Positions 6,981-21,784 of a DNA stretch of 64,000 nt are shown one piece after another. Both the position numbers and the translations under genes were made by a program. How positions within the stretch are numbered: the stretch's first letter is position 1; each line of letters starts with the position of its first letter. This stretch comes from Deltaproteobacteria bacterium (GTDB lineage: Bacteria > Myxococcota_A > UBA9160 > PR03). The stretch spans positions 80,401 through 144,400 of the forward strand of contig JAPSFT010000010.1 in assembly GCA_035063765.1 (NCBI GenBank), read 5' to 3'. The notes beneath the pieces were generated by a model, which saw only the letters and a program-made list of their open reading frames with translations, was not told where the DNA came from and did no database searches.

Positions 6981-7029
6981 TTGACAGAAGTCGGGCGGCT
7001 CGCCTAGATACGAATCGGGTTCCGATTCG
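6981..7029 (+). promoter_or_regulatory. Sigma70-like promoter plus perfect 8-bp inverted repeat (candidate TetR operator)
   Basis: TTGACA at 6981-6986, an 18-nt spacer, then TAGATA at 7005-7010. Immediately after comes CGAATCGG-gtt-CCGATTCG (7011-7029). GAGGG then GTG at 7045 of the TetR gene follow. Confidence 0.6.
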
Positions 7030-7044
7030 CAACGAGGGCCGCCG

Positions 7045-7716
7045 GTGTCCGCTTCCCCTCCGCTCCACCCGCTCCCGCTCGCGAGCGTCGCGCGCCCGAA
7101 GCAGGCCCGCAGCGAGGCGACCCTGCAGCGGCTGCTCGACGCCGCCGAGGCGCTGATCGAGGAGACCGGCTCCGCGGAGATCTCGATCCCGGCGATCGTG
7201 CGCCGCGCGCGCTCGTCGGTGGGTGGCTTCTACGCGCGCTTCCGCGACAAGACCGAGCTCCTGCGCGCGCTCGAGGAGCGCTTCTTCCGCGAGCAGCAGG
7301 CCCGCCTCGAGCGCCTCACCCGGCCCGAGGCCTGGGGCCAGGCGGGCGTCGCGGAGATCGTGCGCTTCTGCGCGGCCGAGCTGGTCGGGGTCTTCCGCCA
7401 GCACCGCACGCTGATCCGTGCCTTCGTGGCGCGCGCGATCCACGACCTCGAGTTCCGCGGCGAGGCGCAGCGCTTCGAGCGCGCGGTGGCCGACCGCGTG
7501 ACGGCGCTCCTGCTCTCGCGCCCGGACGCGATCGGCCATCCGCGGCCGGCGCTCGGCGTCCGGGTCGCGGTCGCGATCGTGTTCGGCGCGATGACCGCCG
7601 GCGTGCTCTTCGGCGACCCGCGCGACGGCATCGCTTCGCTGCCCGCCGAGGAGGCCGCCGAGGAGCTCGCGCGGAACTTCCTCGGTCACCTGCAGGTCCG
7701 CTCGGCCGCACCCTGA
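7045..7716 (+). CDS. TetR/AcrR family transcriptional regulator
   Basis: 223 aa. N-terminal HTH region ARSEATLQRLLDAAEALIEETGSAEISIPAIVRRARSSVGGFYARFRDKTELL is typical of TetR_N. Confidence 0.9.
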   Translation: MSASPPLHPLPLASVARPKQARSEATLQRLLDAAEALIEETGSAEISIPAIVRRARSSVGGFYARFRDKTELLRALEERFFREQQARLERLTRPEAWGQAGVAEIVRFCAAELVGVFRQHRTLIRAFVARAIHDLEFRGEAQRFERAVADRVTALLLSRPDAIGHPRPALGVRVAVAIVFGAMTAGVLFGDPRDGIASLPAEEAAEELARNFLGHLQVRSAAP

Positions 7717-7736
7717 ACCCAGGAGAGCACGTCCCC

Positions 7737-8840
7737 GTGCGTTATTCCCAGCGCAATCCCCTTCCGATCCCCGCCGCCGGTGAGTTCCAGCGCGTCTCTT
7801 CGACGATCGACGCCGTCTTCGACTGGCAGTACGAGCTGAAGCGCCAGAAGCTGATGGAGCTCTACGAGAAGGGGAAGGCGGCCACCTGGAACGCCACCGA
7901 CCTCGACTGGTCGATCGACGTGGACATCGAGAAGATGGTGTCGCAGCGCCAGATGGCGGGCGGGGGCGGCGTCGTCAACCAGTTCCTGGCCCCCCCGCGC
8001 CCGCTCGACGAGCGCGAGGCGCTGACCCTCAACCTGAACATGAACGCCTTCATGCTCTCGCAGTTCCTGCACGGCGAGCAGGGCGCGCTCCTGGCGACGG
8101 CCAAGATCGTGGAGACGGTGCCCTGGGCGGAGGCCAAGTTCTACGCCGCCAACCAGGTGGCCGACGAGGCCCGTCACGTCGAGGTGTACCACCGCTACCT
8201 CACCGAGAAGCTCGGCGTCTCCTACGAGGTCCACCCGAGCCTCGCGACGATGCTCGACGACATCCTCCGCGACTCGCGCTGGGACGTCACCTACCTCGGC
8301 ATGCAGATCCTGATCGAAGGGCTCGCGCTGGCCGCCTTCGGCATGCAGAAGCTCATGATGGCCGAGGAGCCGCTGATCGTGGACATCACGACGCGGATCA
8401 TGGCCGACGAGTCGCGACACGTGGCCTTCGGCGTGATCTCGCTCGAGGAGGTCTACCAGGGGATGTCGGCTGCCGAGCTGCGCGAGCGCGAGGACTTCGT
8501 GATCGAGGCCACGCACCTGATGCGCGAGCGGCTGCTCATGCAGCCGGTCTTCGAGCGCCTCGGCTGGCCGCTCGAGGTGTGGATGCCGTGGGCGCTCGAG
8601 ACCCCCTTCATGCGCGGCTTCCGGCAGATGCTCTTCTCGAAGATCGTGCCCAACCTGAAGCGCCTGGGGCTGCTCACGCCGCGCGTGCGCGAGGCGTACG
8701 CGAAGCTCGACCTGCTGCGCTTCGAGCATCTGAAGGACTCCGTCGAGGACCCCGAGGTGCAGCCGCCGGCCGAGCTGGTGCAGCTCCTGCTCCAGGTACT
8801 GGCGAGCCGCCAGGCGGAGACGCCGGGCGCGCCGGGCTGA
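7737..8840 (+). CDS. Ferritin-like diiron-carboxylate protein (AurF/R2-like oxygenase fold)
   Basis: 367 aa. Two E...ExxH pairs (LHGEQGALL ... ADEARHVEVY and LIEGLALAAF ... ADESRHVAFG). N-terminal WNATDLDWS segment as in AurF-like proteins. Starts 20 nt after the TetR stop. Confidence 0.65.
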   Translation: MRYSQRNPLPIPAAGEFQRVSSTIDAVFDWQYELKRQKLMELYEKGKAATWNATDLDWSIDVDIEKMVSQRQMAGGGGVVNQFLAPPRPLDEREALTLNLNMNAFMLSQFLHGEQGALLATAKIVETVPWAEAKFYAANQVADEARHVEVYHRYLTEKLGVSYEVHPSLATMLDDILRDSRWDVTYLGMQILIEGLALAAFGMQKLMMAEEPLIVDITTRIMADESRHVAFGVISLEEVYQGMSAAELREREDFVIEATHLMRERLLMQPVFERLGWPLEVWMPWALETPFMRGFRQMLFSKIVPNLKRLGLLTPRVREAYAKLDLLRFEHLKDSVEDPEVQPPAELVQLLLQVLASRQAETPGAPG

Positions 8841-8890
8841 GCCTCACCGGGTCGCCAGGAACGCGCTCGCACGCCCCGCCGGCAACCCTC

Positions 8891-9295
8891 TCAGGGGCCG
8901 GCGCGCTCGACCTCCAGCTCGTGTCCGCGGAGCCGCCGCACCCGGACCGGTTCGCCCGCGGCGATCGGCGCCGTACCGGCCGCGCGCCGCGCGCGCCAGC
9001 GCTCCGGCCCGATCCGCACCCAGCCCTCGTCGTCGATCACGGTGTCGGCGACGCCGCTCTCGCCGATCGGTCCGTGGGGCGCGCGGCCGTCGGGCTCGTA
9101 GGCGCGCCGCACGACCGGGTAGAGGAGGGCGTCCTTCGCGAGCCAGGCGGCCATGCCGGCCAGCGCCCAGGGCAGCGGCAGAGCCCACCAGCGCATCGCG
9201 AGCGCGAGAATCACGGCGGCCAGGAGCCAGCCCGGCGCCTGGAGGAGCAGGTAGCGCCGCAGGGTGCCGGCGGCGGGCGCACGCGGCGCGCTCAT
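8891..9295 (-). CDS. NfeD-like membrane protein (two TM helices plus a C-terminal OB-fold-like domain)
   Basis: 134 aa. Helices LLLQAPGWLLAAVILALAM and LPLPWALAGMAAWLA, then a soluble tail GESGVADTVIDDEGWVRIGPERWRARRAAG...GEPVRVRRLRGHELEV typical of NfeD C-termini. The ATG overlaps the ALDH stop (ATGA at 9292-9295). Confidence 0.7.
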   Translation of the reverse strand: MSAPRAPAAGTLRRYLLLQAPGWLLAAVILALAMRWWALPLPWALAGMAAWLAKDALLYPVVRRAYEPDGRAPHGPIGESGVADTVIDDEGWVRIGPERWRARRAAGTAPIAAGEPVRVRRLRGHELEVERAGP

Positions 9296-10692
9296 GCGAA
9301 GCGCTTGATGAGCGCCTTCTCGAGCTTCGTGTAGGGCGGGTAGCCGAGCTTCGGGTCGATCCGGGTGCTCTTCTTGAGCACCGGCTTCCAGTGGCTCATC
9401 GCGTCGAAGCCGTGCTTGCCGTGGTAGGCGCCCATCCCGCTCTCGCCGACGCCGCCGAAGGGCAGGTTCGGGTTGGCGAGGTGCCAGATCGCCGCGTTCA
9501 CCGTGACGCCGCCGGCGCTGGTCCGCTCGAGGACCGCCTCCTCGACGGCCTGGCGGCGCGTGAAGACGTAGAGCGCCAAGGGCTTCGGGCGCGCGTTCAC
9601 GAACCCGATCGCCTGCTCCATGTCGCGCACCGGCAGCACGGGCAGGATCGGGCCGAAGATCTCCTCCTGCATCACCGGCGAGTCCGGGGACACGTCGCGC
9701 AGGATCGTGGGCGCGACGTAACGGTCGGCGCGGTCCACCTGTCCGCCGATCACCGCCGTCCCGCTCTCGAGGAGCTTCGCGAGCCGGTCGACGTGCTGCT
9801 CGTTCACGATCCGCGCGAGATCGGGGCTCTGCTGGGGCGCGTCGCCGTAGAACGTCCGCACCCAGTGGGCGAGGCGCTCGACGAGCTCGCGCTCGCGCGC
9901 CTCGTGCACCAGCACGTAGTCGGGCGCCACGCAGGTCTGCCCGCAGTTCAGGAACTTGCCCCAGGCGATCCGGCGCGCCGCCACGTCGAGGTCCACGTCC
10001 TCGTCCACCAGGCAGGGGCTCTTGCCGCCGAGCTCGAGCGTGACCGGCGTCAGGTGCTTCGCGGCCGCCGCCATCACGATCCGGCCCACCCGGCCGTTCC
10101 CGGTGTAGAAGATGTGGTCCCAGCGTTCGGCCAGCAGCGCCTGGGTCTCGGCGACGCCGCCCTCGACGATCGCGTAGGCATCGGGGTCGAGATAGCGCGG
10201 GAGCAGCCCGGCGAGCGCGGCGGAGACGTGCGGCGTCACCTCGGAGGGCTTGATCAGCGCGGCGTTGCCCGCCGCGATCGCCGCCGCGAGCGGGGCCAGC
10301 GCGAGCTGCACCGGGTAGTTCCAGGGCGCGATCACCAGCACCACGCCGACCGGCTCGGGCACGATCCACGAGCGGGCGGGCTGGATCTGGAGCGGCGTCG
10401 CGACCCGGCGCGGCTTCATCCAGCGCCGGAGCTGCTTGCGGGCGATGTCGATCTCGCCGATCGCGAAGCCGACGTCCGTGACCCAGCCCTCGGGGTCGGG
10501 CTTGCGCAGGTCGGCCTCGAGCGCGCGGACCAGCGCGTCGCCGTTCTCGTGGAGCAGCGCGCGCAGCCGGTCGAGCTGGGCGAGCCGGTACGCGGCGGGG
10601 CGCGTGCGGCCCGCGTCGAAGGTCGCCCGCAGGCGGGCGACCCGCTCGGGGATCGCGTCGACGGGGCTGGCGGGCTGCGGGGCGGCGCTCAT
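9292..10692 (-). CDS. Aldehyde dehydrogenase, class 3 (fatty-aldehyde dehydrogenase-like)
   Basis: 466 aa from ATG 10690-10692, preceded by GGAGG. Motifs VIAPWNYP, LELGGKSP and catalytic FLNCGQTCVAPDYVLV, EEIFGPILPV, and a short C-terminus as in the ALDH3 family. Confidence 0.9.
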   Translation of the reverse strand: MSAAPQPASPVDAIPERVARLRATFDAGRTRPAAYRLAQLDRLRALLHENGDALVRALEADLRKPDPEGWVTDVGFAIGEIDIARKQLRRWMKPRRVATPLQIQPARSWIVPEPVGVVLVIAPWNYPVQLALAPLAAAIAAGNAALIKPSEVTPHVSAALAGLLPRYLDPDAYAIVEGGVAETQALLAERWDHIFYTGNGRVGRIVMAAAAKHLTPVTLELGGKSPCLVDEDVDLDVAARRIAWGKFLNCGQTCVAPDYVLVHEARERELVERLAHWVRTFYGDAPQQSPDLARIVNEQHVDRLAKLLESGTAVIGGQVDRADRYVAPTILRDVSPDSPVMQEEIFGPILPVLPVRDMEQAIGFVNARPKPLALYVFTRRQAVEEAVLERTSAGGVTVNAAIWHLANPNLPFGGVGESGMGAYHGKHGFDAMSHWKPVLKKSTRIDPKLGYPPYTKLEKALIKRFA

Positions 10693-10783
10693 GGGAACCT
10701 CCGGGGCGCGGGCGCGCGGGAGCGCCCCGAGTGTAGCCTGCCGGGATGGATCCGACTCCGGCAGCGCGGCCGCGCGTCCCCTC

Positions 10784-11605
10784 ATGACGGTGGAGCCCGC
10801 TCCGGCGCCCGCGCTGCTCGCCCTCGAGCCCCCGCTCCGGCTCGCCGCCTTCGCCGTCGTGTTCGTGCTGATGGCGCTCTGGGAGCGCCGGGCGCCACGG
10901 CGCCCGCTCGCGATCGGGCGCCGGCGGCGCTGGCCGGGCAACCTCGGCATCGCCGTGCTCGACACGCTGCTGCTCCGCCTCCTGCTGCCCACCGCCGCGT
11001 TCGGGACGGCGCTGCTCGGCGAGGCGCGCGCCTGGGGGCTCCTGCCGGCGCTCGGCGTGTCGGGCTGGCCCGCGGTGGTCACCGCCGTCGTGGTGCTCGA
11101 TCTGGCGATCTACCTCCAGCACGTGCTCTTCCACGCGCTGCCCCTGCTGTGGCGCCTGCACCGGATGCACCACGCCGATCTCGACGTGGACGTCACGACC
11201 GGGAACCGCTTCCACCCGATCGAGATCCTGCTCTCGATGCTCTGGAAGATCGCGGTCGTGGTGGCGCTCGGCGCCCCCGCGGCCGCCGTGCTCCTCTTCG
11301 AGGTCCTGCTCAACGCGACCGCGCTCTTCGGCCACGGGAACGTGCGCCTCGCCGGGCCCCTCGATCGCGCGCTGCGCTGGCTCCTCGTGACGCCGGACAT
11401 GCACCGCGTGCACCACTCGGCGGTCCCCGCCGAGACCGGCAGCAACTTCGGCTTCAACCTCTCCTGCTGGGATCGGCTGCTCGGGACCTATCGCGCCGCC
11501 CCGGCGGCCGGCCACGAGCGGATGACGATCGGGCTCGAGGCCTTCCGCGATCCCGGGGAGCTCCGCCTGGATCGGATGCTCTCGCAGCCCTTCCGCACCC
11601 GCTGA
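10784..11605 (+). CDS. Fatty acid hydroxylase superfamily membrane enzyme (sterol desaturase family)
   Basis: 273 aa. Histidine boxes HVLFH, HRMHH and HRVHH. NFGFNLSCWDRLLGTY tail motif. N-terminal TM helices. Divergent from the ALDH gene across 91 nt. Confidence 0.85.
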   Translation: MTVEPAPAPALLALEPPLRLAAFAVVFVLMALWERRAPRRPLAIGRRRRWPGNLGIAVLDTLLLRLLLPTAAFGTALLGEARAWGLLPALGVSGWPAVVTAVVVLDLAIYLQHVLFHALPLLWRLHRMHHADLDVDVTTGNRFHPIEILLSMLWKIAVVVALGAPAAAVLLFEVLLNATALFGHGNVRLAGPLDRALRWLLVTPDMHRVHHSAVPAETGSNFGFNLSCWDRLLGTYRAAPAAGHERMTIGLEAFRDPGELRLDRMLSQPFRTR

Positions 11606-11617
11606 GCGCGCCCGGCC

Positions 11618-14143
11618 TCAGGGGGTCGGTGCGGAGCTCAGCTCGATCGTCGCGCGGTGCCCGTCGCCGGCGATGTTGCGGCTACCCATGCCCGGGTAGC
11701 CCCCGGCCGTGAAGTTGTTGTCGATCGTGTCGTTCTTGCCGAGCCGGATCGCCATCTCGTCGCCGTTCGCGGTCGGGAAGGCGGTGTTGGAGTTCGAGAA
11801 GGCGTCGAGCGCCGTGTGGAAGGTCACCACCACGTGGGCGTCGCCGGTTCCCTGGATCGCCGCCGCCGCTGCCCCGCTGAACTCCAGGTCCTGGCTGCTC
11901 GAGGAGCCGCCGACGCCGTCGCTGATGCCGGTCGCCGAGGGCGTGAAGCCGAAGCTGCCGCTCGGGCCGCCGGTGATCGACCAGGTGGCCTCGACGGGGG
12001 GCAGGAGCGACGCGGTGCCGCCGCCGTCCTGGAAGCCGATGCCGTCGTTGTAGCCGTCGCTGATGCGGTCGAAGGCCCCGCGCAGGGCATGGTCGAGGTC
12101 GAGGGTCCACTGCTCGCCCGGGACCGAGACGACGTCGAGCTCCACGCGATAGGAGAGCGTCGCCGTCGAGTGGGCGTCGTTGGTCGTGCAGCCGGCGTCG
12201 GCGCCGAGCATGCCGCGCAGGCTCGTGGAGACCTGGTTGCCGAGCACGCTCCCGGCGAGCCGGTGGCGCCACTCGCGCAGCCAGCAGCCCCCCTGCTCGC
12301 GGAAGTCCCCGCTCGCGAGGTCCGTGAAGGTCACGTTGGCGAGCCGGGTGGTCGGCTTCTGGACCAGGTTCGCGAACAGCCCGATGTAGCCGCCCGCGAG
12401 CCGCGCCACCTCGACCGGCTCGAGGTCGAGGCCGAGCAGGGAGGGCACCGGGAAGGCCTCGATCGCGCTCTCGAGCTGCGGCGCGAAATACGGGAACAGC
12501 ATGCGGAAGGTCTCGACGAGCGACGTCTCGTTGGCGCCGATCAGGTTCTTCGTGACGGTCATGTCGATCTCGCTCGCGGGCGGCGTCACCAGCGTGAACT
12601 CGAGCCCGGCCGCGGTGAAGGCCAGATCGAGGCCCGCGTCGAGATCCACCTCGAGCGTGAGGAAGGTCTGCTGCTGGGCCGAGAACTCGAGGTCGACCGC
12701 GAGCGCCGCGATCTTCAGCTCGGCGAACTCGCCACCGGGTCCGGCCGCGCCGGTGAAGACCGGGGCCAGGGTCGGCCGGAGCCGGATCGTGATCGGCTCG
12801 GAGGGATCGGCGGCTGCGAGCTGCGGGATGAAGAGCGAGAGCAGCTCCGCGGTCAGCGGCAGACCCATGAACTCGGTGATGTCGGTCCGCAGCAGGCCGT
12901 TCTCGATCTGCGTCTTCAGGAGCTGGTTCATCGCGGAGGTGGAGATCGCGAAGGCGAGCCCGTAGGGCAGGCCGCCGTTCGGCGTCGAGGGACCGAAGCT
13001 CGGGAACGGCTCGGCGACCGCGTACGAGGCCGGCAGGTCCGGTGCGCCCGGGGCCGGTGCCGTCGAGGTGATGGCGGCGTCGGCCGCGAGGGTCAGGCCG
13101 GTGGCCTCCTCGGTGATCGCGGTGAACGGCGCCTCGAGCACGCCGCCGAGCGCCGCGCCGACCGGCCCCGCGATCGAGATCCCGGCCAGCGCGCTCTCGA
13201 TCGCACCTGCCAGCGGGGAGTCCTGCGGGCCCGCACCGTCGGGGTCCGCCAGGTTGTCCTGGAAGCCCTGTTGCATCAGCGCCTGGATGTCCCCCTCGCC
13301 GATGATCGAGTTCACGATGTCGCCGAGCAGCGGGTCGTCGCAGATGCCCGACACGAACTGCGAGCCGAAGCCGCCGAGCGTCACCGCGATCGGCGACACC
13401 AGGTTGACGTCCACGAGGGAAGGGTCCGCCGCGAGGGGCTGGAGGTCGTAGGTGCCGGCGATCGTGGCATTCGCCGTCTCGATCTCGAGCGTGCAGGCAC
13501 CGAGCCAGTCGAGGTCGAGGTCGATCTCGAGGAAGAAGTCGTCGATCGCGATCGTGGTGGCCAGGCCGGCCGGCGTCGGGTCCACGTCGATCCCGAAGCC
13601 TCCGAAGCCCACCTCGACGACGTTGGCGGTGTAGGAGACCCCGCTCATGCTGCCCTGGGCGATCGGGTTCTGGGCGGTGATCAGGCCGCTGATGTCGAGC
13701 GAGTCGCCCGACAGGCTCTCGACGATCGGCGAGATCTGGTCGAGGCCGGTGTCGGCGATGCGCAGCGCGACGCCTTGCGGTGACGCCTCGCCGTCGAGCA
13801 CGAAACCGGTCTGCACACCGTCGCCCACGACCACGGTGACGAAGCGCTTCAACTTCGCGCCCGACTGGAGCGCGCCCACCGCGCTGAGCCGCTGGAACAC
13901 CGCGCTCGTGTCGACCGGCACGTCCACCGACCAGGTGGCGGCGGGCGTCACCGGCACGCCGTTCACGGCGAGGCTCGCGAACTGGCCGGGTTGGACCAGG
14001 CGGCCCGTCACGGTGACCAGCGCGCCGTTCAGGAACGTCCCGTGCACCGGGGAGTCGAGCAGGAGCTGGGCGCCGGGGTTGCAGGACGCACCGATGGTGA
14101 GTCCGAGGGCGACCCAGAGCGCGATCCTTCGGGTTCGATGCAC
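11618..14143 (-). CDS. Large secreted lipoprotein with a putative BPI/LBP/CETP-like (TULIP) lipid-binding core
   Basis: GTG start 14141-14143 lies 6 nt after GGAGGAG. Signal peptide RRIALWVALGLTIGASC. High GC3 throughout. The central ~500 aa resemble BPI N- and C-domains segment by segment (see finding). The longer ORF to 14305, or ATG 14185, are alternative starts. Confidence 0.75.
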   Translation of the reverse strand: MHRTRRIALWVALGLTIGASCNPGAQLLLDSPVHGTFLNGALVTVTGRLVQPGQFASLAVNGVPVTPAATWSVDVPVDTSAVFQRLSAVGALQSGAKLKRFVTVVVGDGVQTGFVLDGEASPQGVALRIADTGLDQISPIVESLSGDSLDISGLITAQNPIAQGSMSGVSYTANVVEVGFGGFGIDVDPTPAGLATTIAIDDFFLEIDLDLDWLGACTLEIETANATIAGTYDLQPLAADPSLVDVNLVSPIAVTLGGFGSQFVSGICDDPLLGDIVNSIIGEGDIQALMQQGFQDNLADPDGAGPQDSPLAGAIESALAGISIAGPVGAALGGVLEAPFTAITEEATGLTLAADAAITSTAPAPGAPDLPASYAVAEPFPSFGPSTPNGGLPYGLAFAISTSAMNQLLKTQIENGLLRTDITEFMGLPLTAELLSLFIPQLAAADPSEPITIRLRPTLAPVFTGAAGPGGEFAELKIAALAVDLEFSAQQQTFLTLEVDLDAGLDLAFTAAGLEFTLVTPPASEIDMTVTKNLIGANETSLVETFRMLFPYFAPQLESAIEAFPVPSLLGLDLEPVEVARLAGGYIGLFANLVQKPTTRLANVTFTDLASGDFREQGGCWLREWRHRLAGSVLGNQVSTSLRGMLGADAGCTTNDAHSTATLSYRVELDVVSVPGEQWTLDLDHALRGAFDRISDGYNDGIGFQDGGGTASLLPPVEATWSITGGPSGSFGFTPSATGISDGVGGSSSSQDLEFSGAAAAAIQGTGDAHVVVTFHTALDAFSNSNTAFPTANGDEMAIRLGKNDTIDNNFTAGGYPGMGSRNIAGDGHRATIELSSAPTP

Positions 14144-14291
14144 GGCAGGCTCCTCCCAATTCCGATCCGGGCCGTATCGTTTCATGCGATCGACCGGTTG
14201 TAAAGGGGGGCGGGCGGTGTTTGCCACCCACCCCGGGCCGGGGATAATCCGGCCGTTGCGGACGGCCGCGCGGCGGCGGTGGAGGCTGGCC

Positions 14292-15599
14292 ATGCAGCAG
14301 CGCATCCCGAGGGTCGTTCCCCTCGCCCTCCTGGGCGTGCTCGCGATGGGCGCGACCTGCGACGACGGCTGCCCCGCGGGCTACCAGCCGGTCGAGCTGC
14401 CGGAGTTCCTCTTCGGGCTCTCGCAGGTGCCGGCGGATGCGATCGCGATCGCGCAGGAGGTGGGCGCTGGCGCGCTGCGCCCGACGCTCTCCTGGCGCGT
14501 GGTCGAGCCGGCCCTCACGGCCGAGGGGCTCACGCTCGCCGGCGTGCGCGGCGACCCGGCCGGCATCGCCACCTGGGCCGCGAGCCGCGACTGGTCGAAC
14601 TTCGACCAGCGCCTGGGCGCGATCGCGGCGGCGGGCCTCCAGCCGGTGCCGATCGTCGGCCACGGCTACACGACGACGCTGCCGCTGCTCGGCGGAGTGC
14701 CGGCTGCACCCGACGTGCTGGGCCGCGAGGAGTACCTGGCGCGCCAGTACCGCTTCACGCGCGCCGTCGTCGAGCGCTACGACGGCGACGGTGTCGACGA
14801 CGCGCCCTCGGGCCTGCGCATCCCGCTCTGGCAGACCGAGAACGAGCTGAACCAGGCCTTCTTCACGGCGATCTTCGGCTGGCGCCACCCGGCGATGATC
14901 GATGCCTTCGGCTCGGCGTGGCAGGACTGGGCCTACGTGACCCGGATCCTCGAGACCCTGCGCCTCGCGGTGCGCGACGCGGACCCCACCGCGCTCACCA
15001 CGATGAACTTCCACACCGACGTGCACGCGGGCATCAACGAGTACTTCGGGCATCCGGGCTGGCTCGACGCGATCCGCGAGTGGCGCGACCAGATGGACGT
15101 CATCTCCTTCGACGCCTATCCGAACTACTACCGGGCCTCGCCGCCCGACGGCCTCACGGTGGGGGTGCGCGCCGGCCTGGTCCGAGCGCAGGCCTGCGGG
15201 CGTCCGGTCGTCGTGATGGAGACCGGCTACCCGACGGGTCCGTCCGAGTCCGGCTACGACGAGGCGCAGCAGGCCGCCTTCGTGCGCGACGCCTTCGCCT
15301 ACTCGGTGGCGGCTGGCGTCCGCGGCTTCTTCCTGTTCGGCGCGCGCACCTCCGAGACCCACACGGTCGCGATCACGCCCTACGACCTCGAGCAGGTCGC
15401 GCTGCTCGCGGGCTTCCTCGAGACGGGTGACGCCGAGGCGCTGTTCCAGTACGCGCTCACCCACCTCGACTACGTGCAGAGCCAGCTCGCCGCCGTCGTG
15501 CAGGCGGTGGAGGGCTACTGGGGGCTCTATCGCGCCGACGGCAGCGAGAAGCCGGCCCTCCAGGAAATGCGCGAGATCGGCGCCGGCCTGCCCGATTGA
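14292..15599 (+). CDS. Secreted clan GH-A (TIM-barrel) glycoside hydrolase, probable lipoprotein
   Basis: ATG 14292 follows GGAGG at 14281-14285. Signal/lipobox LALLGVLAMGATC. Acid/base motif WQTENELN and nucleophile motif VVVMETGYP, with the spacing typical of GH5-like enzymes. Confidence 0.7.
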   Translation: MQQRIPRVVPLALLGVLAMGATCDDGCPAGYQPVELPEFLFGLSQVPADAIAIAQEVGAGALRPTLSWRVVEPALTAEGLTLAGVRGDPAGIATWAASRDWSNFDQRLGAIAAAGLQPVPIVGHGYTTTLPLLGGVPAAPDVLGREEYLARQYRFTRAVVERYDGDGVDDAPSGLRIPLWQTENELNQAFFTAIFGWRHPAMIDAFGSAWQDWAYVTRILETLRLAVRDADPTALTTMNFHTDVHAGINEYFGHPGWLDAIREWRDQMDVISFDAYPNYYRASPPDGLTVGVRAGLVRAQACGRPVVVMETGYPTGPSESGYDEAQQAAFVRDAFAYSVAAGVRGFFLFGARTSETHTVAITPYDLEQVALLAGFLETGDAEALFQYALTHLDYVQSQLAAVVQAVEGYWGLYRADGSEKPALQEMREIGAGLPD

Positions 15600-15653
15600 C
15601 GGGGGGCGCCCGCCGGCCTGCTCGTGCGGAGCACCCGGTGCGCGCGGCCGGCG

Positions 15654-16052
15654 CTACCCGTCTGCCTCGCTTGCCCGGAGCTGCGCGACGACCACCGCCG
15701 TCGAGTCGACGTAGCCGCGACCGAGCAGCCGGGCCAGGCGCGCGCCCAGGTAGCGGCGCACGAAGCGCAGCCGGATCGCCTCGGCCTCGGCGGGATCGTC
15801 GACCACGCGCGCCCGGCCGTGCAGGCGGGTCGCTCCGATCTGCACGGTGACGGCGCCCCCCGCCGCCTCGTGGGCCCGCACGTTGCGCACCCACTGCGGC
15901 GGCTCCCCGCTCCCGGTGAGGTAGATCCGGCGCGCCGCCGGGTCGAGCGCGAACCACATGGTGACGGTGCGCGGCTCGCCGCTCCGGCGCCCGCGCACCG
16001 TGAGCCGGCAGTTCCAGTGCCGCTCGAGGGGACGCAGATCGACCTGGCTCAC
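15654..16052 (-). CDS. Nitroreductase/deazaflavin-dependent oxidoreductase family (DUF385, PNPOx-like)
   Basis: 132 aa. The pattern LTVRGRRSGEPRTVTMWFALDP...IYLTGSGEPPQWVRNVRA...VTVQIG matches the split-barrel DUF385 family. Confidence 0.6.
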   Translation of the reverse strand: MSQVDLRPLERHWNCRLTVRGRRSGEPRTVTMWFALDPAARRIYLTGSGEPPQWVRNVRAHEAAGGAVTVQIGATRLHGRARVVDDPAEAEAIRLRFVRRYLGARLARLLGRGYVDSTAVVVAQLRASEADG

Positions 16053-16083
16053 ACGCGCACCTCGCTGGCCGGGGTCGCCCGGC

Positions 16084-17337
16084 TCATGCGGGCGCCAGTG
16101 TACCCAGCCGGTAGCGGCGCAGCTCGGGAATCCGCCAGGCCACGAGCGCCAGCACGAGCAGGCAGCCGATCCCCCCGCTCACGACCGCGAAAGCGGGGCT
16201 CGTGGCAGCAGCGACGAAGCCCGCGCGCGCCGCGCCGAGCTGGTTGGAGGCCTGGATGAAGATCAGGTTGACGGCGCTGACCCGGCCGCGCAGCGCGTCG
16301 GGCGTGGAGAGCTGGATCGCGGTCTGTCGCATCACCACGCTCACCTGGTCGGCCATGCCCACGACCATGTAGGTCGCCACCGCGAGCGGGAAGGCGCGCG
16401 AGAGGCCGAAGGCGACCGTCGCGCAGCCGTAGACGCCGACCCCGATCAGCAGCGCGCGGCCCGGCCGCGCCGCGGGCGGGCGCAGCACCATCGCCGCCGC
16501 CATCCCGAGCGCGCCGATCTCGAGCGACGAGGCGAGCAGCCCGAAGCCGCGCGGGCCGACCCCGAGGATCTCCTGGTAGGCCGGCAAGAGGGCGGTCGCG
16601 TTGGCGAGGATCACCGCGAACATGTCGAGCGCCATGCAGCCGAGCACGACCGGCTCCGAGCGCACGAAGGCGAGCCCCTCGCGCACCGCGAGCCAGCTCG
16701 GCGCGCGCCGCTCGCCGGAGTCACGCAGCGGGCGGAAGAAGCCGATCCCGAGCCAGTTGAGCGCGATCAGCCCGACGTACAGGCCGTAGGCCAGCCCGGG
16801 GCCGCCGCGTGCGATCGCGAGCCCGGCCAGCGCCGGCCCCGCGGCGAAGGCCAGCGCCTGGATCGTGGAGGCGAAGGTGACGGCGCGCGGGAACGCCGCG
16901 ATCGGGACCAGCGTCGGCACCAGCGCCTGGCGCGCCGGGCTGTCGAAGGCGAACGCGCAGGAGACCAGGAACACGGCGCCGTAGAGGAGCGGCAGCGACG
17001 CGGCCCCGGCCGCCGTACACCCGAAGAGCGTCGCCCCGGCCGCGAGCAGCGGGAGCTGCGCCAGCCGCATCACGCGCCGGCGGTCGTAGGCGTCGGCGAC
17101 GGCGCCGCCCACCAGGGTGAGCGCGAGCGTCGGCGCGAACTGGACCACACCCACCATGCCCACGTGGAAGGTCGAGCCGGTGCGGTCGAAGACGTGCCAG
17201 AAGATCGCGGTGCGCATCAGCATCATCGCGGTCGCCGCGCAGAAGCGGCTCGCGAGGTAGATCCGGAACGAGGGCGGGATCTCGACGGGGGAAGGGAGGG
17301 CGGCGGCCACGCGAGGGGGATCGCACGGAGCCCGCAC
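16084..17337 (-). CDS. MFS transporter
   Basis: 417 aa with about 12 hydrophobic helices and the MFS loop motif GGAVADAYDRRRVM between TM2 and TM3. Confidence 0.85.
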   Translation of the reverse strand: MRAPCDPPRVAAALPSPVEIPPSFRIYLASRFCAATAMMLMRTAIFWHVFDRTGSTFHVGMVGVVQFAPTLALTLVGGAVADAYDRRRVMRLAQLPLLAAGATLFGCTAAGAASLPLLYGAVFLVSCAFAFDSPARQALVPTLVPIAAFPRAVTFASTIQALAFAAGPALAGLAIARGGPGLAYGLYVGLIALNWLGIGFFRPLRDSGERRAPSWLAVREGLAFVRSEPVVLGCMALDMFAVILANATALLPAYQEILGVGPRGFGLLASSLEIGALGMAAAMVLRPPAARPGRALLIGVGVYGCATVAFGLSRAFPLAVATYMVVGMADQVSVVMRQTAIQLSTPDALRGRVSAVNLIFIQASNQLGAARAGFVAAATSPAFAVVSGGIGCLLVLALVAWRIPELRRYRLGTLAPA

Positions 17338-17417
17338 CGCCGCAAGCGCCGCGAGGCACCGTCGACCCGTGTGGTACGCTGCGGCGCTCCGGCGCGGCCT
17401 ACGAGGAGGAGGGATCC

Positions 17418-18929
17418 ATGGCAGCGAAGGTCGAGACGGCCCTGGGCAGGGTGGCCGGCGCCGAGGTGGAGGGCGTCCGCGTCTTCCGCGGGATTCCCTT
17501 CGCGCAGCCGCCGGTGGGTGCGCTGCGCTTCCGCGTGCCCGAGCCGGCCGCGCCCTGGGCCGGCACGCGCGACGCGAGCCGCTTCGGCGGCTCCGCGCCC
17601 CAGCCTCCCCTCCTGCTGGCGGCGCTGCCCGGCATGGACGTGGGCGCGCAGGGCGAGGACTGCCTGTACCTGAACGTGTATGCGCCGGCGGGCGCGCGCC
17701 CCGGCGACCGCAAGCCCGTCCTGGTCTGGATCCACGGCGGCGGCTTCGTGATCGGCTCGGGCGCGCAGGCGGTCTACGACGGCGCGCCGCTCGCGCGCCG
17801 CGGCGGCGTGGTGGTGGTCACGATCAACTACCGGCTCGGCGTGCTCGGCTTCCTCGATCCCGGCGAGCCGGCCGGGGACGCGACCGCGAATGCGGGTCTC
17901 CTCGACCAGATCGCCGCGCTGCGCTGGGTGCGCGACAACGTCGAGGCCTTCGGCGGCGACCCGGGCAACGTGACGATCTTCGGCGAGTCGGCCGGCGGCA
18001 TGAGCGTCGGCACGCTGCTCGGCACACCGGCCGCACGCGGGCTCTTCCACAAGGCGATCCCCCAGAGCGGCGCCTGTCACAACGTGCACGACCGCGAGTC
18101 GGCGGGGGCGGTGACGGCCGCGCTGCTCGCGGCCCTGGGACTCACCGGCCCGGCCCTCCCCGCGCTGCGGGCGCTGCCGGTCGAGAAGCTCCTGGCGGCG
18201 CAGCAGCAGGTGAGCCTCCAGGCGATGGCGGCGGGCGGCCGCCACCTGCTGCCGCTCCAGCCGGTCGTCGACGGCGACACCCTCCCGCGTCATCCGTTCG
18301 AGGCCGTGCGTGCGGGCCATGCCACGGGCGTACCGGTGCTGGTCGGCACCACGCGCGACGAGTGGAGGCTCTTCGGCTTCCTGGACCCCGAGCTCCGCCA
18401 GCTCGACGACGCGAAGATCGCCGCGCGCCTCGAGCAGCGGCTGCCCCACGCGGACGGCCGCCGGCTCGTCGAGGGCTATCGCGCGAGCCGCCCCGGGGCC
18501 GACGGGGCCGCGCTGTGGCTCGCGATCGAGACGGACCGTGTGTTCCGCATCCCCGCGATCCGGCTCGCGGAGGCGCAGGCGGCGCACGCGCCGAGCGTGC
18601 ACGCCTACTGCTTCACCTGGGAGTCGCCGGGCTTCGGCGGCCTGCTCGGCGCCTGCCACGCGATCGAGCTGCCCTTCGTGTTCGGCGCGCTCTCCCTGCC
18701 GGGCGGCGAGCAGTTCGTGGGCACGGGCCCGGAGGCCGAGCGCCTCGCCGAGCGCACGATGGACGCCTGGCTCGCGTTCGCCCGCAGCGGGGATCCCGGT
18801 CACGCGGGCCTTCCCGCCTGGCCCGTCTACGACGCGCAGCGCCGCGCCACCCAGGAGCTCGGCCGCGAGTGCCCGGTGCACGACGATCCCCAGGCCGCCG
18901 AGCGGGCCCTCTGGGACGGAGTCCTCTAG
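17418..18929 (+). CDS. Carboxylesterase/lipase, type B (para-nitrobenzyl esterase-like), paralog 1
   Basis: 503 aa. Motifs FRGIPFAQPP, EDCLYLNVY, WIHGGGF, and nucleophile elbow GESAGG. Confidence 0.9.
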   Translation: MAAKVETALGRVAGAEVEGVRVFRGIPFAQPPVGALRFRVPEPAAPWAGTRDASRFGGSAPQPPLLLAALPGMDVGAQGEDCLYLNVYAPAGARPGDRKPVLVWIHGGGFVIGSGAQAVYDGAPLARRGGVVVVTINYRLGVLGFLDPGEPAGDATANAGLLDQIAALRWVRDNVEAFGGDPGNVTIFGESAGGMSVGTLLGTPAARGLFHKAIPQSGACHNVHDRESAGAVTAALLAALGLTGPALPALRALPVEKLLAAQQQVSLQAMAAGGRHLLPLQPVVDGDTLPRHPFEAVRAGHATGVPVLVGTTRDEWRLFGFLDPELRQLDDAKIAARLEQRLPHADGRRLVEGYRASRPGADGAALWLAIETDRVFRIPAIRLAEAQAAHAPSVHAYCFTWESPGFGGLLGACHAIELPFVFGALSLPGGEQFVGTGPEAERLAERTMDAWLAFARSGDPGHAGLPAWPVYDAQRRATQELGRECPVHDDPQAAERALWDGVL

Positions 18930-19002
18930 GACGTCCCCGAGCGCCCGCCGCACCGGACCCGCCGGCGCCCTCTACGCCCTGCTCGCGTACACGAGCTGGG
19001 GC

Positions 19003-19887
19003 GTGATGCCGGTCTACTGGAAAGGGCTCGCGGCGATCGCGCCGCTCGAGATCCTGCTGCACCGCATCGCCGGCACGGCGCTGTTCGCGGCGTTGCTGCT
19101 GACGCTCGCACGGCGCTGGGGCGAGGTCCGCGCGATCCTGCGCCACCGGCGGAGGCTGCTCGCGCTGCTCGGCTCGGCGCTGCTGATCGCGGCCAACTGG
19201 GGGATCTTCATCTGGGCCGTCCAGCGGGGCCAGATCGTCGCGACGAGCCTCGGCTACTACCTGAACCCGCTCGCGAACGTGGCGCTCGGCCTGCTCCTCC
19301 TGCGCGAGCGGCTGACGCGGCTCCAGCTCGCCGCGGTCGGGATCGCCGCAGCCGGGGTCGCCTACTTCACGGCCGCGGCGGGCGGCCTGCCGTGGATCTC
19401 GCTGGCGCTGGCGACGTCGTTCGCGCTCTACGGGCTGATCCGCAAGACGGTCGCCGCCGGCTCCCTCGCGGGCCTCGCCGTCGAGACGGCGCTGCTCGCA
19501 CCCGCGGCGCTCGCCGGCATCGCGCTCCTCGAGGCGCGCGGCGCCGGCGCGCTCGGCTCGGGCGCGCTCGGCGCGCTGGAGACCACGGGGCTCCTCGCGG
19601 CGGGGATCGTGACGGCGCTGCCACTGCTCTGGTTCGCGTCGGCCGCCCGGCGGCTCCGGCTCGCCACCCTCGGGCTCTTCCAGTACATCGCGCCGAGCCT
19701 CTCGCTCGCGTGCGCCGTCGGGCTCTATGGCGAGCCCTTCACGCGGGCCCACGCCGTGGCCTTCGGCTGCATCTGGCTCGCGCTCGCGCTCTACTCCTTC
19801 GAGTCGTTGCGGCTGTATCGCTCCCTCGGACCGGCCGTCGCGGTCCCCGCGACGGCCCTGCCGGAGCCGCCCTCCTCCGGCTCGTAG
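19003..19887 (+). CDS. rarD: EamA/RarD family transporter (start uncertain)
   Basis: Aligns along its length with E. coli RarD from memory (WGVMPVYWK, NWGIFIWAV, SLGYYLNPL, FALYGLIRK, LGLFQYIAPS). Homology clearly extends upstream to about 18961 (PAGALYALLAYTS), but no ATG/GTG/TTG occurs in frame there. The first canonical starts are GTG 19003 and ATG 19006. Confidence 0.8.
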   Translation: MMPVYWKGLAAIAPLEILLHRIAGTALFAALLLTLARRWGEVRAILRHRRRLLALLGSALLIAANWGIFIWAVQRGQIVATSLGYYLNPLANVALGLLLLRERLTRLQLAAVGIAAAGVAYFTAAAGGLPWISLALATSFALYGLIRKTVAAGSLAGLAVETALLAPAALAGIALLEARGAGALGSGALGALETTGLLAAGIVTALPLLWFASAARRLRLATLGLFQYIAPSLSLACAVGLYGEPFTRAHAVAFGCIWLALALYSFESLRLYRSLGPAVAVPATALPEPPSSGS

Positions 19888-19977
19888 CGGTGGCGTTGCG
19901 TCCCGATTCCGGGACACGGAGGACGCACTCCCGGATCCCTCAACCCCGGTCGATCCCACGCCGATCCACCCTCCGCC

Positions 19978-20592
19978 ATGACGGAACCCCGCTTCGCGAT
20001 CGCCTCCCACGCAGCGGACTCGGACTACGCGCCGACCTCGCGGGTCCTGCTCTGGAAGCTCGGCTACGCGCTGCTGCCGCCCGAGGAGGCCGGCTCGCCG
20101 GCCCTGCGCGTCGTGCGTGACGACCGCCTGGACGAGGTCCCGGCGCCGACCGCGGAGCCGATCATCCTCCTGACGCGCGCGCGCAAGGCGAAGCCGGCCG
20201 ACCCGCGCGTCGTCGGCAGCGTGCGGCGGCCCGCGGGCCTGCACGAGCTCTACCGGCTCTTCCAGGCCGCTACCGAAGCGCACCCGCGCGCCGTGCCGCG
20301 CGTTCCCTGCTCGCTCGCGGCGCGGGCGACCGTGCCCGACGACGGCCAGCGCTTCGAGCTGCGCATCACGTCGCTCTCCGAGAACGGCTGCCTGGTCAGC
20401 GGCGAGCGCCTGCCGGCCCTCGACGCGCGGCTCGCGCTCGAGATCGAGATGCCCTGGGGCGAGCGCCTGGGCGGCCCTGCGGTCGCGGCCTACGAGCAGG
20501 GGGACCAGCTCGGCCTGGTCTTCCACGACATCCGGCTGGCCGAGCGCAAGAAGCTCGTGAAGGCGGTGCGGCAGCTCCTCGAGCGGCTCTGA
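19978..20592 (+). CDS. PilZ domain protein with an uncharacterised ~100-aa N-terminal domain
   Basis: 204 aa. The C-terminal half carries HPRAVPRVP (RxxxR) and ITSLSENGCLV (xSxxG), followed by the PilZ beta-barrel pattern. Confidence 0.75.
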   Translation: MTEPRFAIASHAADSDYAPTSRVLLWKLGYALLPPEEAGSPALRVVRDDRLDEVPAPTAEPIILLTRARKAKPADPRVVGSVRRPAGLHELYRLFQAATEAHPRAVPRVPCSLAARATVPDDGQRFELRITSLSENGCLVSGERLPALDARLALEIEMPWGERLGGPAVAAYEQGDQLGLVFHDIRLAERKKLVKAVRQLLERL

Positions 20593-20619
20593 CCACGCCG
20601 GCCGCCGCCCGCGGCGGAC

Positions 20620-21745: not shown

Positions 21746-21784
21746 ATATACGATGCCCGCCCCACGACCCTGGAGGCCCCCGCC

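Follow-up and report, generated by a model that had tools for sequence, protein, structure and literature searches.

The window, the whole 64-kb stretch of DNA that was analysed, comes from an uncultured, very GC-rich bacterium of the Myxococcota type and was found to contain, on the minus strand, a gene for an 841-aa protein (Table 1). The gene was convergent with its neighbour on one side and divergent on the other, and was surrounded by ordinary bacterial genes. Its reading frame showed a coding-type codon bias (GC3 0.95, GC2 0.52) and ended in a stop codon at 11618-11620. The GTG start codon at 14143 was found to be preceded, about 6-8 nt upstream, by GGGAGGAG, a strong ribosome-binding site. 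Two alternative starts, a longer ORF from 14305 and an ATG at 14185, were set aside, and the GTG was preferred because of the ribosome-binding site, the N-termini of the homologues and the presence of an identical 841-aa protein (P0001) in public assemblies. The protein search returned 227 homologues. The encoded protein contained a lipobox followed by an Ig-like sandwich, a double TULIP (residues 119-597) and an unannotated beta-sandwich.

Table 1. Features of the 841-aa lipoprotein gene, with their positions in the window
Feature	Residues	Coordinates	Strand	Basis
Whole gene, 841-aa lipoprotein		11618..14143	(-)	Codon bias, identical P0001, 227 homologues, AlphaFold2 model
Shine-Dalgarno-like GGGAGGAG		14150..14157	(-)	Read directly from the sequence
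Predicted signal peptide and lipobox, MHRTRRIALWVALGLTIGAS-C21	1-21	14081..14143	(-)	Sequence reading, Cys conservation in homologues, helix in model
N-terminal Ig-like (E-set) beta-sandwich	22-118	13790..14080	(-)	Pfam matches in family and model
N-terminal TULIP barrel	119-300	13244..13789	(-)	Secondary structure of model, Foldseek, R-x4-GLD motif
Inter-barrel region	301-395	12959..13243	(-)	Conservation and model
C-terminal TULIP barrel	396-597	12353..12958	(-)	Homologous in sequence to Pfam LBP_BPI_CETP_C
C-terminal all-beta domain, 244 aa	598-841	11621..12352	(-)	Separate model; unannotated

The N-terminus was found to contain MHRTRR-IALWVALGLTIGAS-C21, which is the bacterial lipoprotein arrangement of a signal peptide ending in a lipobox cysteine, and a helix was present at residues 3-19 of the AlphaFold2 model. 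A cysteine equivalent to C21 was found after the hydrophobic stretch in most of the 59 aligned homologues, directly followed by the conserved (D/T)SPxHGxF motif, and the lipoboxes of these homologues included LLSC, LAGC, GAAC, GASC, VLSC and LTSC. Cys21 is therefore predicted, as the first-pass annotation had proposed in describing a lipobox-anchored lipoprotein, to be the lipid-modified N-terminus of the mature protein. Cys217 and Cys268 were found to be invariant in the 59 sequences and the Cys620/Cys652 pair was conserved, which would fit an oxidising extracytoplasmic location.

The taxonomic survey of homologues that had been suggested for this gene returned at least 378 clusters at 50% identity, the hosts of which were nearly all Myxococcota, "Deltaproteobacteria" and Binatia MAGs and were all uncultured. 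The members were annotated only as 'hypothetical' wherever a source named one, and no NCBIfam family was returned for the 841-aa protein. At least 11 genomes contained both a long and a short paralogue; no second paralogue was present within the window. No conserved neighbour was found, and no neighbour family was common to more than eight of the 80 homologous loci, where the only large clusters of apparent neighbours consisted of antisense ORFs within the gene itself. The divergent glycosidase-like lipoprotein gene (14292-15599) to which the first-pass annotation had drawn attention is present, but neither it nor any other of 10 neighbours in the window was found to adjoin a homologue (0 of 80 loci). 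Since the neighbourhood analysis was negative, the ideas that the gene belongs to an operon or system, or is functionally tied to the glycosidase, were rejected.

The AlphaFold2 model of the 841-aa protein (pLDDT 86.7, pTM 0.75) was found to contain two tandem TULIP barrels, composed of a helix A, a long wrapped antiparallel sheet and a helix B and joined by a central sheet. The N-terminal barrel contained a strand at residues 121-130 followed by helix A (131-148), the long antiparallel sheet (162-266) and helix B (271-298). The invariant Cys217 was located where strand 216-236 begins, and Cys268 immediately ahead of helix B. A near-invariant acidic loop, (L)ADPDGAGPxDSP, was found at residues 297-310, starting inside the N-terminal barrel and running into the inter-barrel region, which contained helices at 310-331 followed by strands of the central sheet at 334-376.

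In the Foldseek search against the PDB, the best matches of the model were BPI 1ewf (E 4e-19) and BPI 1bp1 (E 5e-19), followed by LBP 4m4d (1e-17), CETP 2obd (3e-15), OrfX1-OrfX3 (1e-8) and P47 (1e-5). The BPI match spanned about 510 aligned columns of the 456-residue target with a TM-score of 0.62-0.65 normalised to BPI and an identity of 13-14%, whereas the OrfX/P47 matches were far weaker (TM-score 0.27-0.40 normalised to the target). Both structures named beforehand for this comparison, 1BP1 and 4M4D, were thus matched, and no unrelated beta-rich fold was obtained. The 480-residue core almost certainly has a BPI/LBP/CETP-type double-TULIP fold, and the complete two-barrel module that had been read from the sequence alone was borne out.

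The relation to BPI was also found in the sequence of the C-terminal barrel. The 841-aa protein scored only 12.4 bits against PF02886 (LBP_BPI_CETP_C; cutoff 23, E 0.1), whereas this model matched 19 of the 59 homologues at an E of 1 or less (best E 1e-10). Two homologues, each 40% identical to the 841-aa protein, were individually checked and found to lie above the gathering score (P0103, 39.6 bits; P0084, 27.6 bits), with the match of P0103 covering model positions 39-236 of 238. Membership of PF02886 holds for the family by transitivity and not from the 841-aa sequence alone, and the C-terminal barrel was shown at the sequence level to be homologous to the LBP_BPI_CETP_C family. The N-terminal Pfam model, PF01273, matched neither the 841-aa protein at E up to 10 nor any of the 59 members at E up to 1, and hhalign of the N-domain only against BPI was insignificant (E 0.07, probability under 1%). 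Of the two Pfam assignments that had been expected, the C-terminal one was thus recovered through homologues and the N-terminal one was not. The assignment of the N-terminal barrel rests on structure and one short motif, because PF01273 matches no family member.

In the profile-profile comparison, the family was aligned to a BPI-orthologue profile with an E of 1e-4 and a probability of 57%, and the best statistic was obtained with the short-paralogue profile (E 2.1e-5, probability 77%). The BPI-orthologue profile was required for significance; against a single BPI sequence the C-domain was aligned correctly with a probability of only 2%. Four segments at residues 122-144, 396-422, 449-463 and 561-593 had been matched to BPI in the first-pass annotation, and their counterparts were located at residues 2-21, 256-280, 312-326 and 422-453 of mature BPI (PDB 1BP1 chain A, 456/456 residues apart from the engineered S351A). 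The gaps between the segments were 274, 53 and 112 residues in the bacterial protein and 254, 56 and 110 in BPI. The hhalign alignment paired segments 2, 3 and 4 identically, and greedy extension of the short-paralogue alignment, which was collinear across 450 columns, also paired segment 1 ('gvalRlnDtGLD' with 'GfvaRItqKGLDyA') with high per-column confidence, so that the proposed correspondence in order and spacing was reproduced. The R-x4-GLD motif was the only part of the N-terminal barrel to be aligned confidently. Both families were found to contain the motifs R-x4-GLD, S-x-x-F-F/x-N and FP(L/V)P, and G133, N406, P565 and P567 were invariant together with G44/D46, N295 and P457/P459 of the BPI precursor. 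The resemblance of the segments to BPI far exceeds chance expectation.

Direct sequence searches of the PDB with the protein and the family profile returned nothing relevant, and the sole match, OspC (E 0.016), was judged to be due to chance. This absence, the E of only 0.1 against Pfam and the low identity to BPI are what might be expected from a chance resemblance of an unrelated beta-rich protein; recent transfer of a eukaryotic gene and an assembly contaminant were considered together with it. Against these stand the Foldseek match across full-length BPI, the family members above the Pfam cutoff, the collinear motifs with a profile-profile E of 2e-5, a GC3 as extreme as that of the host, the ordinary bacterial genes around the locus and the number of bacterial clusters. 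Recent transfer and contamination are excluded because the family contains so many bacterial clusters and the identity to BPI is low, and this explanation as a whole is effectively refuted.

The beta-sandwich-like region that had been noted at the N-terminus was identified as an Ig-like domain, since Pfam Glucodextran_B matched 47 of the 59 members (best E 3.7e-10) and Big_7 matched eight, and strands were found in the model at residues 26-116 with a pLDDT above 90. This domain always accompanied the TULIP core in the database matches (profile positions about 25-612). The Gly/Ser/Asp-rich C-terminal domain, previously put at about 200 aa, was found to be all-beta and 244 aa long with 32% Gly+Ser+Asp, and its separate model had a pLDDT of 84.2 and a pTM of 0.84. 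It contained the Cys620/Cys652 pair and many invariant Asp/His/Glu/Arg/Ser/Asn residues, with a mean column identity of 58%. The best PDB match of this domain was Bdellovibrio Bd1399 (8okh; E 8e-6, TM-score only 0.31-0.45), and its structural matches to lectins, CBMs and Cry domains were weak. The domain was not filed under DUF4360 because the TM-score of Bd1399 was low despite the significant E-value. No Pfam match was found for it, a match to PagL (E 0.035, one of 17 members) was judged to be due to chance, and it showed no resemblance to the legume-lectin domains found at this position in P0088. It occurred only in the family of the 841-aa protein and in a few proteins of 280-440 aa, and no informative fusion partner was returned by the domain search. 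The C-terminal modules of the relatives were found to be legume-lectin domains, Cys-rich DUF4215 repeats or EGF repeats; lectin, EGF and DUF4215 domains are of types typical of extracellular proteins.

The joining of the core to Ig-like repeats, EGF repeats, DUF4215 Cys-rich repeats and lectins in the relatives, together with the lack of a conserved lipid-metabolism partner nearby, would suit a surface adhesin or structural envelope protein, in which the TULIP serves without lipid as a rigid spacer or a scaffold for protein interaction. From the sequences, however, the conserved unit is the Ig-like sandwich with the double TULIP, and it is the adhesin-like modules that vary. The double TULIP was moreover found to have a GRAVY of +0.42 (-0.08 for BPI), which makes it more hydrophobic than is usual for a soluble domain, and the structurally characterised double TULIPs, BPI, LBP, CETP and TipA, all bind lipids (PMC5507252; 10.1101/2025.09.09.675085). 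A purely adhesive or structural function is accordingly regarded as improbable.

The charge of the module was found to be opposite to that of BPI. The N-terminal barrel contained one Lys/Arg against 27 Asp/Glu (pI about 4.05), the pI of the double TULIP was 4.2 or less in all 59 family members, and the mature product had a net charge of -64, whereas the N-domain of BPI contained 29 Lys/Arg against 15 Asp/Glu (pI 9.7; whole BPI, 9.4). A cationic N-domain is needed for LPS binding and killing by BPI, and this feature was absent from the strongly acidic barrel. The extreme acidity therefore makes a cationic attack on LPS in the manner of BPI unlikely, as is BPI/LBP-like binding of anionic lipid A, and the LPS binding put forward in the first-pass annotation is disfavoured.

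The same acidity bears on the view that the protein is an antibacterial or predatory effector. Such an effector, like human BPI or in the way proposed for Bdellovibrio TipA, would attach to the outer membranes of other Gram-negative cells and destabilise them, or remove lipid from them, in a predatory way of life of the myxobacterial type. Myxococcota is a phylum with many predators, and the Myxococcota-type hosts, the fold of BPI and LBP, and one relative with two legume-lectin domains that could recognise target glycans are in keeping with this view. Bd1399, the best match of the C-terminal domain, is a predation-associated secreted protein of Bdellovibrio, but its TM-score is low and it has no known function. 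TipA sticks to bilayers and destabilises them (10.1101/2025.09.09.675085). In the 841-aa protein, by contrast, the lipobox would tether the module to its producer, the cationic N-domain is replaced by an acidic one, and predation is undocumented both for the uncultured host lineages and for Binatia. A predatory role is thus considered unlikely.

Compared with human BPI, LBP and CETP, the bacterial protein was found to contain the same two tandem helix/wrapped-sheet/helix barrels and central sheet, with the whole 456-residue BPI aligned, together with the sequence homology of the C-terminal barrel and the R-x4-GLD, FFN-type and FPLP motifs, and both groups are exported. The invariant cysteine pair of the N-terminal barrel is a candidate equivalent of the single N-barrel disulfide of BPI (C135-C175); Cys217 was placed on BPI Cys135 by one weak local alignment, whereas the extended alignment does not pair them. 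The bacterial protein differs in being lipobox-anchored where the eukaryotic ones are soluble, in the added N-terminal Ig-like domain and C-terminal beta-sandwich of 244 aa, in a longer inter-barrel region with the conserved acidic DPDGAGPxDSP loop, in a module pI of about 4 against 9.4 for the cationic BPI and in an N-terminal barrel that is unrecognised by PF01273. YceB/DUF1439, DUF4403 and the OrfX1-3/P47 proteins of Clostridium botulinum also have the TULIP fold, although YceB has just one TULIP, and their Pfam models gave no match to the 841-aa protein at E up to 10.

Double TULIPs were long believed to be eukaryotic, and full-length BPI-like proteins had accordingly been described for this locus as essentially eukaryotic and a bacterial version as unusual. 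This view is outdated, since bacterial ones have been reported (PMC10584675; 10.1101/2025.09.09.675085). Barrio-Hernandez et al. 2023 found bacterial structures that cluster with human BPI in the AlphaFold database, such as A0A2D5ZNG0 (PMC10584675), which by their published description resemble the present family in being full-length BPI-like folds in bacteria. An abbreviation for 'Deltaproteobacteria bacterium', the label of many MAGs holding the family, is given in the figure legend of the same paper. Crystal structures of a double TULIP, TipA (Bd2538) of Bdellovibrio bacteriovorus, are given in a 2025-26 preprint; TipA binds to membranes, its lumen carries lipids, and bacterial double TULIPs with fused beta-rich domains were noted in the AlphaFold database in the same work (10.1101/2025.09.09.675085). 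By its published description TipA is likewise a bacterial, exported, BPI-like double TULIP, whereas it is not described as a lipoprotein and dimerises via a hairpin, which is a TipA feature. The C2-like beta-sandwich TipB is a separate protein, an adaptor encoded in an operon with TipA, while in the present family the N-terminal sandwich is fused and Ig/FN3-like and the 841-aa gene has no conserved partner gene at the 80 loci. TipA was absent from the Foldseek PDB matches of the 841-aa protein. The bacterial BPI-like fold has thus been known since 2023, so that current views are not overturned, and the present family is an additional, uncharacterised one.

The protein is best read, with a probability of about 0.65, as an exported and lipid-anchored binder or shuttle of lipid that contains an Ig-like and double-TULIP unit. 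The steps below are drawn from the fold and from established knowledge of BPI, CETP, PLTP and TipA; the lipid binding, its ligand, the compartment and the biological role are all inferred by this analogy. The Sec and lipoprotein-processing pathways would export the protein and acylate Cys21, and the acylated Cys21 would anchor the N-terminus at the cell surface or in an envelope membrane, for which the periplasmic face of the inner membrane and the outer membrane are the candidates. The interior of the elongated two-barrel module, assumed from the fold to be apolar, would hold one or more lipids or hydrophobic molecules, and the anchored module would bind lipid or shuttle it between its membrane and another membrane, a vesicle or a particle. 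Positioning or targeting of the double TULIP may fall to the Ig-like domain together with the variable modules at the C-terminus, and in the 841-aa protein the targeting module would be the novel C-terminal beta-sandwich. By analogy, CETP, PLTP or TipA may be a nearer model for the module than BPI or LBP, with bulk or neutral lipids as its cargo.

A more speculative extension, to which little probability is given, would place the family as the nearest bacterial sister to the eukaryotic BPI/LBP/CETP/PLTP proteins. In that case the eukaryotic extracellular proteins of lipid transfer and LPS sensing would be descendants of an anchored lipid shuttle of the bacterial envelope in which a TipB-type adaptor was built in as the fused beta-sandwich, and the long and short paralogues could cooperate, for example end to end, in moving lipids across the envelope or between cells. 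The basis named for the sister relation is the sequence-detectable homology, the common motifs and possibly the disulfide.

BPI, LBP, CETP and PLTP play central parts in the innate immunity and lipoprotein metabolism of humans. The bacterial family found here is sizeable and entirely uncharacterised, and it is so close to these eukaryotic proteins that their Pfam model recognises it. It offers instructive contrasts with them in its lipid anchor, extreme acidity, constant fused Ig-like domain and swappable C-terminal targeting modules, and it is a tractable system for how double TULIPs load and unload lipid. The family bears on lipid traffic at the envelopes of uncultured Myxococcota and Binatia, and on the origin of the eukaryotic BPI/LBP/CETP family.

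The minus-strand ORF at 11618-14143 is a genuine gene, with GC3 of 0.95 and GC2 of 0.52 in its frame, as in the real genes of the 74% GC window; the many overlapping ORFs in its other frames were rejected as by-products of the high GC content. An 841-aa protein 100% identical to its product (residues are numbered in the precursor) was found in public assemblies along with 227 homologues. The only sources that name these homologues call them all 'hypothetical protein', and no publication on this specific family was found in the literature. The start codon GTG at 14143 was preceded by GGGAGGAG at the correct distance and gave the N-terminus MHRTRRIALWVALGLTIGAS-C21, agreeing with the N-termini of the homologues. 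In most of the 59 aligned relatives, a Cys was found to close the hydrophobic stretch a few residues ahead of a conserved (D/T)SPxHGxF motif, often within a canonical lipobox. From the signal sequence and the conserved lipobox Cys, the protein is predicted to be an exported lipoprotein. Its conserved cysteine pairs fit an oxidising compartment, and the accessory domains of its relatives were of extracellular type.

The AlphaFold2 model built from the 59-sequence alignment was confident (mean pLDDT 86.7, pTM 0.75), and its elements are listed in the table. Foldseek against the PDB ranked human BPI first (1ewf, E 4.1e-19; 1bp1, E 5.3e-19), with about 510 aligned columns on the 456-residue target and a TM-score of 0.62-0.65 normalised to BPI, followed by LBP (4m4d, E 1e-17) and then CETP (2obd, E 3e-15). 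Lower down came TULIPs of clostridia, OrfX1-OrfX3 (E 1e-8) and P47 (E 1e-5), and partial matches were found to the single-TULIP BPIFA1/SPLUNC1, JHBP and Der p 7. No unrelated beta-rich fold was obtained. The first-pass annotation had proposed a complete two-barrel BPI/LBP/CETP core in a lipobox protein; the model and the Foldseek ranking bear this out, and the core, as modelled, is almost certainly a complete double TULIP.

Four segments had been said to follow human BPI in order and spacing. They were located at residues 122-144, 396-422, 449-463 and 561-593, with proposed partners at residues 2-21, 256-280, 312-326 and 422-453 of mature BPI (sequence checked against PDB 1BP1), and the inter-segment spacing was nearly identical (274, 53 and 112 versus 254, 56 and 110). 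Segments 2-4 were paired by profile-profile alignment exactly as first proposed. The family profile matched the single BPI sequence with E 0.022 and a 19-sequence BPI-orthologue profile with E 1e-4 (probability 57%), and the profile of the short paralogue, the Ig-like plus double-TULIP form, matched the BPI profile with E 2.1e-5 (probability 77%). With greedy extension, the latter alignment was collinear across 450 columns and contained segment 1, with 'gvalRlnDtGLD' opposite 'GfvaRItqKGLDyA' at high per-column confidence. The motifs of the segments were found to hold residues invariant in both families, and the likeness to BPI in order and spacing is confirmed.

The two barrels differed in their Pfam matches. 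The C-terminal model LBP_BPI_CETP_C (PF02886) scored 12.4 bits with the protein alone, below the cutoff of 23, and matched 19 of 59 homologues (best E 1e-10). The curated cutoff was passed by the homologues P0103 (39.6 bits) and P0084 (27.6 bits), both 40% identical to the protein, with matches spanning positions 39-236 of the 238 in the model. The N-terminal model PF01273 matched neither the protein nor any of the 59 members searched, and profile comparison restricted to the N-domain was insignificant; of the two Pfam models proposed as a check at first pass, the cutoff was reached only by homologues, and only for PF02886. Because of the PF02886 matches of its homologues, the C-barrel is, at the level of sequence, a demonstrable homologue of the eukaryotic BPI-type family, whereas the N-barrel is assigned by predicted structure plus the N-terminal R-x4-GLD motif. 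Invariant C217 and C268 in the N-barrel were placed at the start of the long strand and directly ahead of helix B, reminiscent of the sole BPI disulfide C135-C175, a putative equivalence on which two profile alignments disagree.

The N-terminal sandwich is Ig/E-set-like, being matched by Glucodextran_B in 47 and by Big_7 in 8 of the 59 members, with partial structural matches of FN3/Ig type, and it was always found alongside the TULIP core in database matches (profile positions ~25-612). A near-invariant acidic loop was found to join helix B to the inter-barrel region, in which D300, P301, D302, G303, G305, P306, D308 and P310 were each kept by 90% or more of 59 sequences. BPI shows no evident equivalent of this loop, which is a possible Ca2+ site. 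The C-terminal 244 residues, modelled on their own (pLDDT 84.2, pTM 0.84), formed an elongated beta-sandwich, whose sole significant PDB match was Bdellovibrio Bd1399 (8okh, E 8e-6, with a low TM-score of 0.31-0.45), a secreted, predation-associated protein that has no assigned function and is related to DUF4360 (PMC10792529). Weaker matches were found to lectin, CBM, Cry-domain and TNF-like jelly rolls. This domain had no Pfam match and did not detectably resemble the legume-lectin domains found in its place in the homologue P0088. It was conserved above the TULIP core (mean column identity 58% versus 35%), with about 30 invariant residues, including many Asp, His, Glu, Arg, Ser or Asn, a Cys pair and the motifs EWRHR, GADAGCTTND, SNSNxxFPxxxGDE and DGH. 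Beyond this family the domain turned up only in a handful of proteins of 280-440 aa. Residues 598-841 (11621-12352, minus strand) are treated as a domain not yet characterised, which may serve in ligand recognition and could be a binding or even catalytic domain.

A set of 1.84 billion representatives, searched by profile, gave 378 proteins at E <= 1e-30 and 1219 at E <= 1e-10. The Ig-like plus double-TULIP unit occurred on its own (~610 aa), with the same C-terminal domain (~840-880 aa), or within proteins of 800-1400 aa that also carry DUF4215 Cys-rich repeats, EGF repeats or lectin domains. A scan of GTDB species representatives on a single peptide pattern, which under-samples the family, gave 78 loci; nearly all came from MAGs bearing the labels Myxococcota, 'Deltaproteobacteria', Polyangiaceae or Candidatus Binatia, a few had other bin labels and none was from a named cultured strain. 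At least 11 representative MAGs contained both paralogues, the long one with the C-terminal beta-sandwich and the short form (locus pairs L003/L051, L004/L025, L005/L028, L006/L018, L009/L024, L011/L079, L012/L068, L013/L026, L014/L038, L016/L044 and L017/L029). The two were non-adjacent, one pair lying ~10 kb apart on one contig, and the two forms may cooperate or divide the labour between them. Chance resemblance, contamination or recent eukaryotic transfer is extremely improbable, being contradicted by the host-like GC3, the Foldseek match to BPI, the family size, the Pfam cutoff passed and the profile-profile alignment.

The gene was found to stand alone, with the fatty-acid-hydroxylase-family gene convergent downstream and a weakly GH42-like gene divergent upstream. 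The latter had been called a secreted GH-A glycosidase lipoprotein; the divergent gene is present with a signal-like N-terminal sequence (...LALLGVLAMGATC), but its Glyco_hydro_42 match was borderline (E 3e-4, 20.7 bits, just below the cutoff of 21). A sigma-70-like promoter match lies ahead of it. Not one of 80 homologous loci had any of ten window neighbours within 6 kb, and no neighbour family was common to more than 8 of these loci; thus there is no operon partner, no gene for an adaptor like TipB and no conserved glycosidase link. The surrounding genes (6985-23101) have a lipid or hydrophobic-compound flavour, which may be coincidence, since none of them is conserved beside the homologues. 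Further along the window, a large ORF whose codon bias is of coding type (GC3 0.94) had no Pfam match at E <= 1e-5, and two large adjacent or overlapping genes formed an AddAB/AdnAB-like helicase-nuclease pair, ordinary chromosomal content.

Features of the modelled protein (residues) and of the surrounding window (nucleotides)
Feature	Position	Strand	Remark
Signal helix	first element		AlphaFold2 model
N-terminal beta-sandwich	residues 26-116		AlphaFold2 model
Strand and helix A	residues 121-148		AlphaFold2 model
Long antiparallel sheet, first barrel	residues 162-266		AlphaFold2 model
Helix B	residues 271-298		AlphaFold2 model
Acidic loop LADPDGAGPxDSP	residues 297-310 (13214-13255)	-	candidate Ca2+ site
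Helical and sheet linker	residues 310-376		AlphaFold2 model
Second-barrel helix	residues 402-414		AlphaFold2 model
Second-barrel sheet	residues 450-533		AlphaFold2 model
Second-barrel later helix	residues 539-560		AlphaFold2 model
Closing strands	residues 572-595		AlphaFold2 model
C-terminal all-beta domain	residues 600-838		AlphaFold2 model
TetR regulator	6985-7716		
Aldehyde dehydrogenase	9292-10701	-	
Fatty-acid hydroxylase family	10763-11605		
Sigma-70-like promoter match	14221-14248	+	
GH42-like gene	14292-15599	+	
F420H2-quinone-reductase-like protein	15654-16052	-	
MFS transporter	16084-17337	-	
Type-B carboxylesterase	17418-18929		
DUF1329/LolA-like protein	21026-23101		
PD-(D/E)XK nuclease protein	within 24733-31907	+	~1177 aa
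UvrD-helicase and PD-(D/E)XK protein	within 24733-31907	+	~1316 aa
ORF	35786-38125	+	779 aa

The first-pass view that BPI-like proteins are essentially eukaryotic and a bacterial one unusual has been superseded. YceB was described as a prokaryotic TULIP (Wong and Levine 2017, PMC5507252), followed by more bacterial families including the two-domain DUF4403 (Levine 2019, PMC6791001), and among the bacterial AlphaFold models that share a cluster with human BPI is A0A2D5ZNG0, at a TM-score of 0.81 (Barrio-Hernandez et al. 2023, PMC10584675). The structure of TipA, a membrane-binding, lipid-carrying, BPI-like double TULIP of Bdellovibrio opened by the separate beta-sandwich adaptor TipB, was solved by Caulton et al., who also pointed to double TULIPs in the AlphaFold database that are fused to beta-rich, helical or enzymatic domains (bioRxiv 10.1101/2025.09.09.675085). 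The family studied here is of this known kind. Unlike TipA as described, it is a lipoprotein with an obligatory fused Ig-like domain, variable C-terminal modules and no partner gene. The observation and main interpretation of the first-pass annotation were correct, which is notable as it was made without database tools.

The family differs from BPI and LBP in charge. The mature protein contains 28 Lys/Arg versus 92 Asp/Glu, TULIP-N 1 versus 27, and the pI is <= 4.2 family-wide versus 9.7 for the BPI N-domain; the double-TULIP module is hydrophobic (GRAVY +0.42 versus -0.08 for BPI). BPI and LBP recognise anionic lipid A via a cationic N-domain, so the acidic module argues against a BPI-type mechanism and favours a carrier or shuttle role of CETP, PLTP or TipA type; the LPS binding or killing first suggested is disfavoured by the same charge. 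A predatory or antibacterial effector is unlikely, with the Bd1399 match, at its low TM-score, speaking for it and this charge against it. Slightly less probable again is an adhesin or scaffold no longer binding lipid, for which the adhesin-type modules of relatives speak and against which the hydrophobicity of the module does.

By analogy with every characterised double TULIP, which holds lipid or hydrophobic molecules (PMC5507252; 10.1101/2025.09.09.675085), the barrels would carry lipid or another hydrophobic ligand, the acylated N-terminus would tie the elongated module to an envelope membrane or the cell surface, and the beta-sandwich domains would orient or target it; to this anchored lipid-binder as a whole, a probability of about two in three is given. 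More speculatively, and with a low probability, the eukaryotic BPI/CETP family might be sister to the bacterial Myxococcota/Binatia clade or derive from it, the bacterial proteins working as a self-contained, adaptor-fused envelope lipid shuttle.
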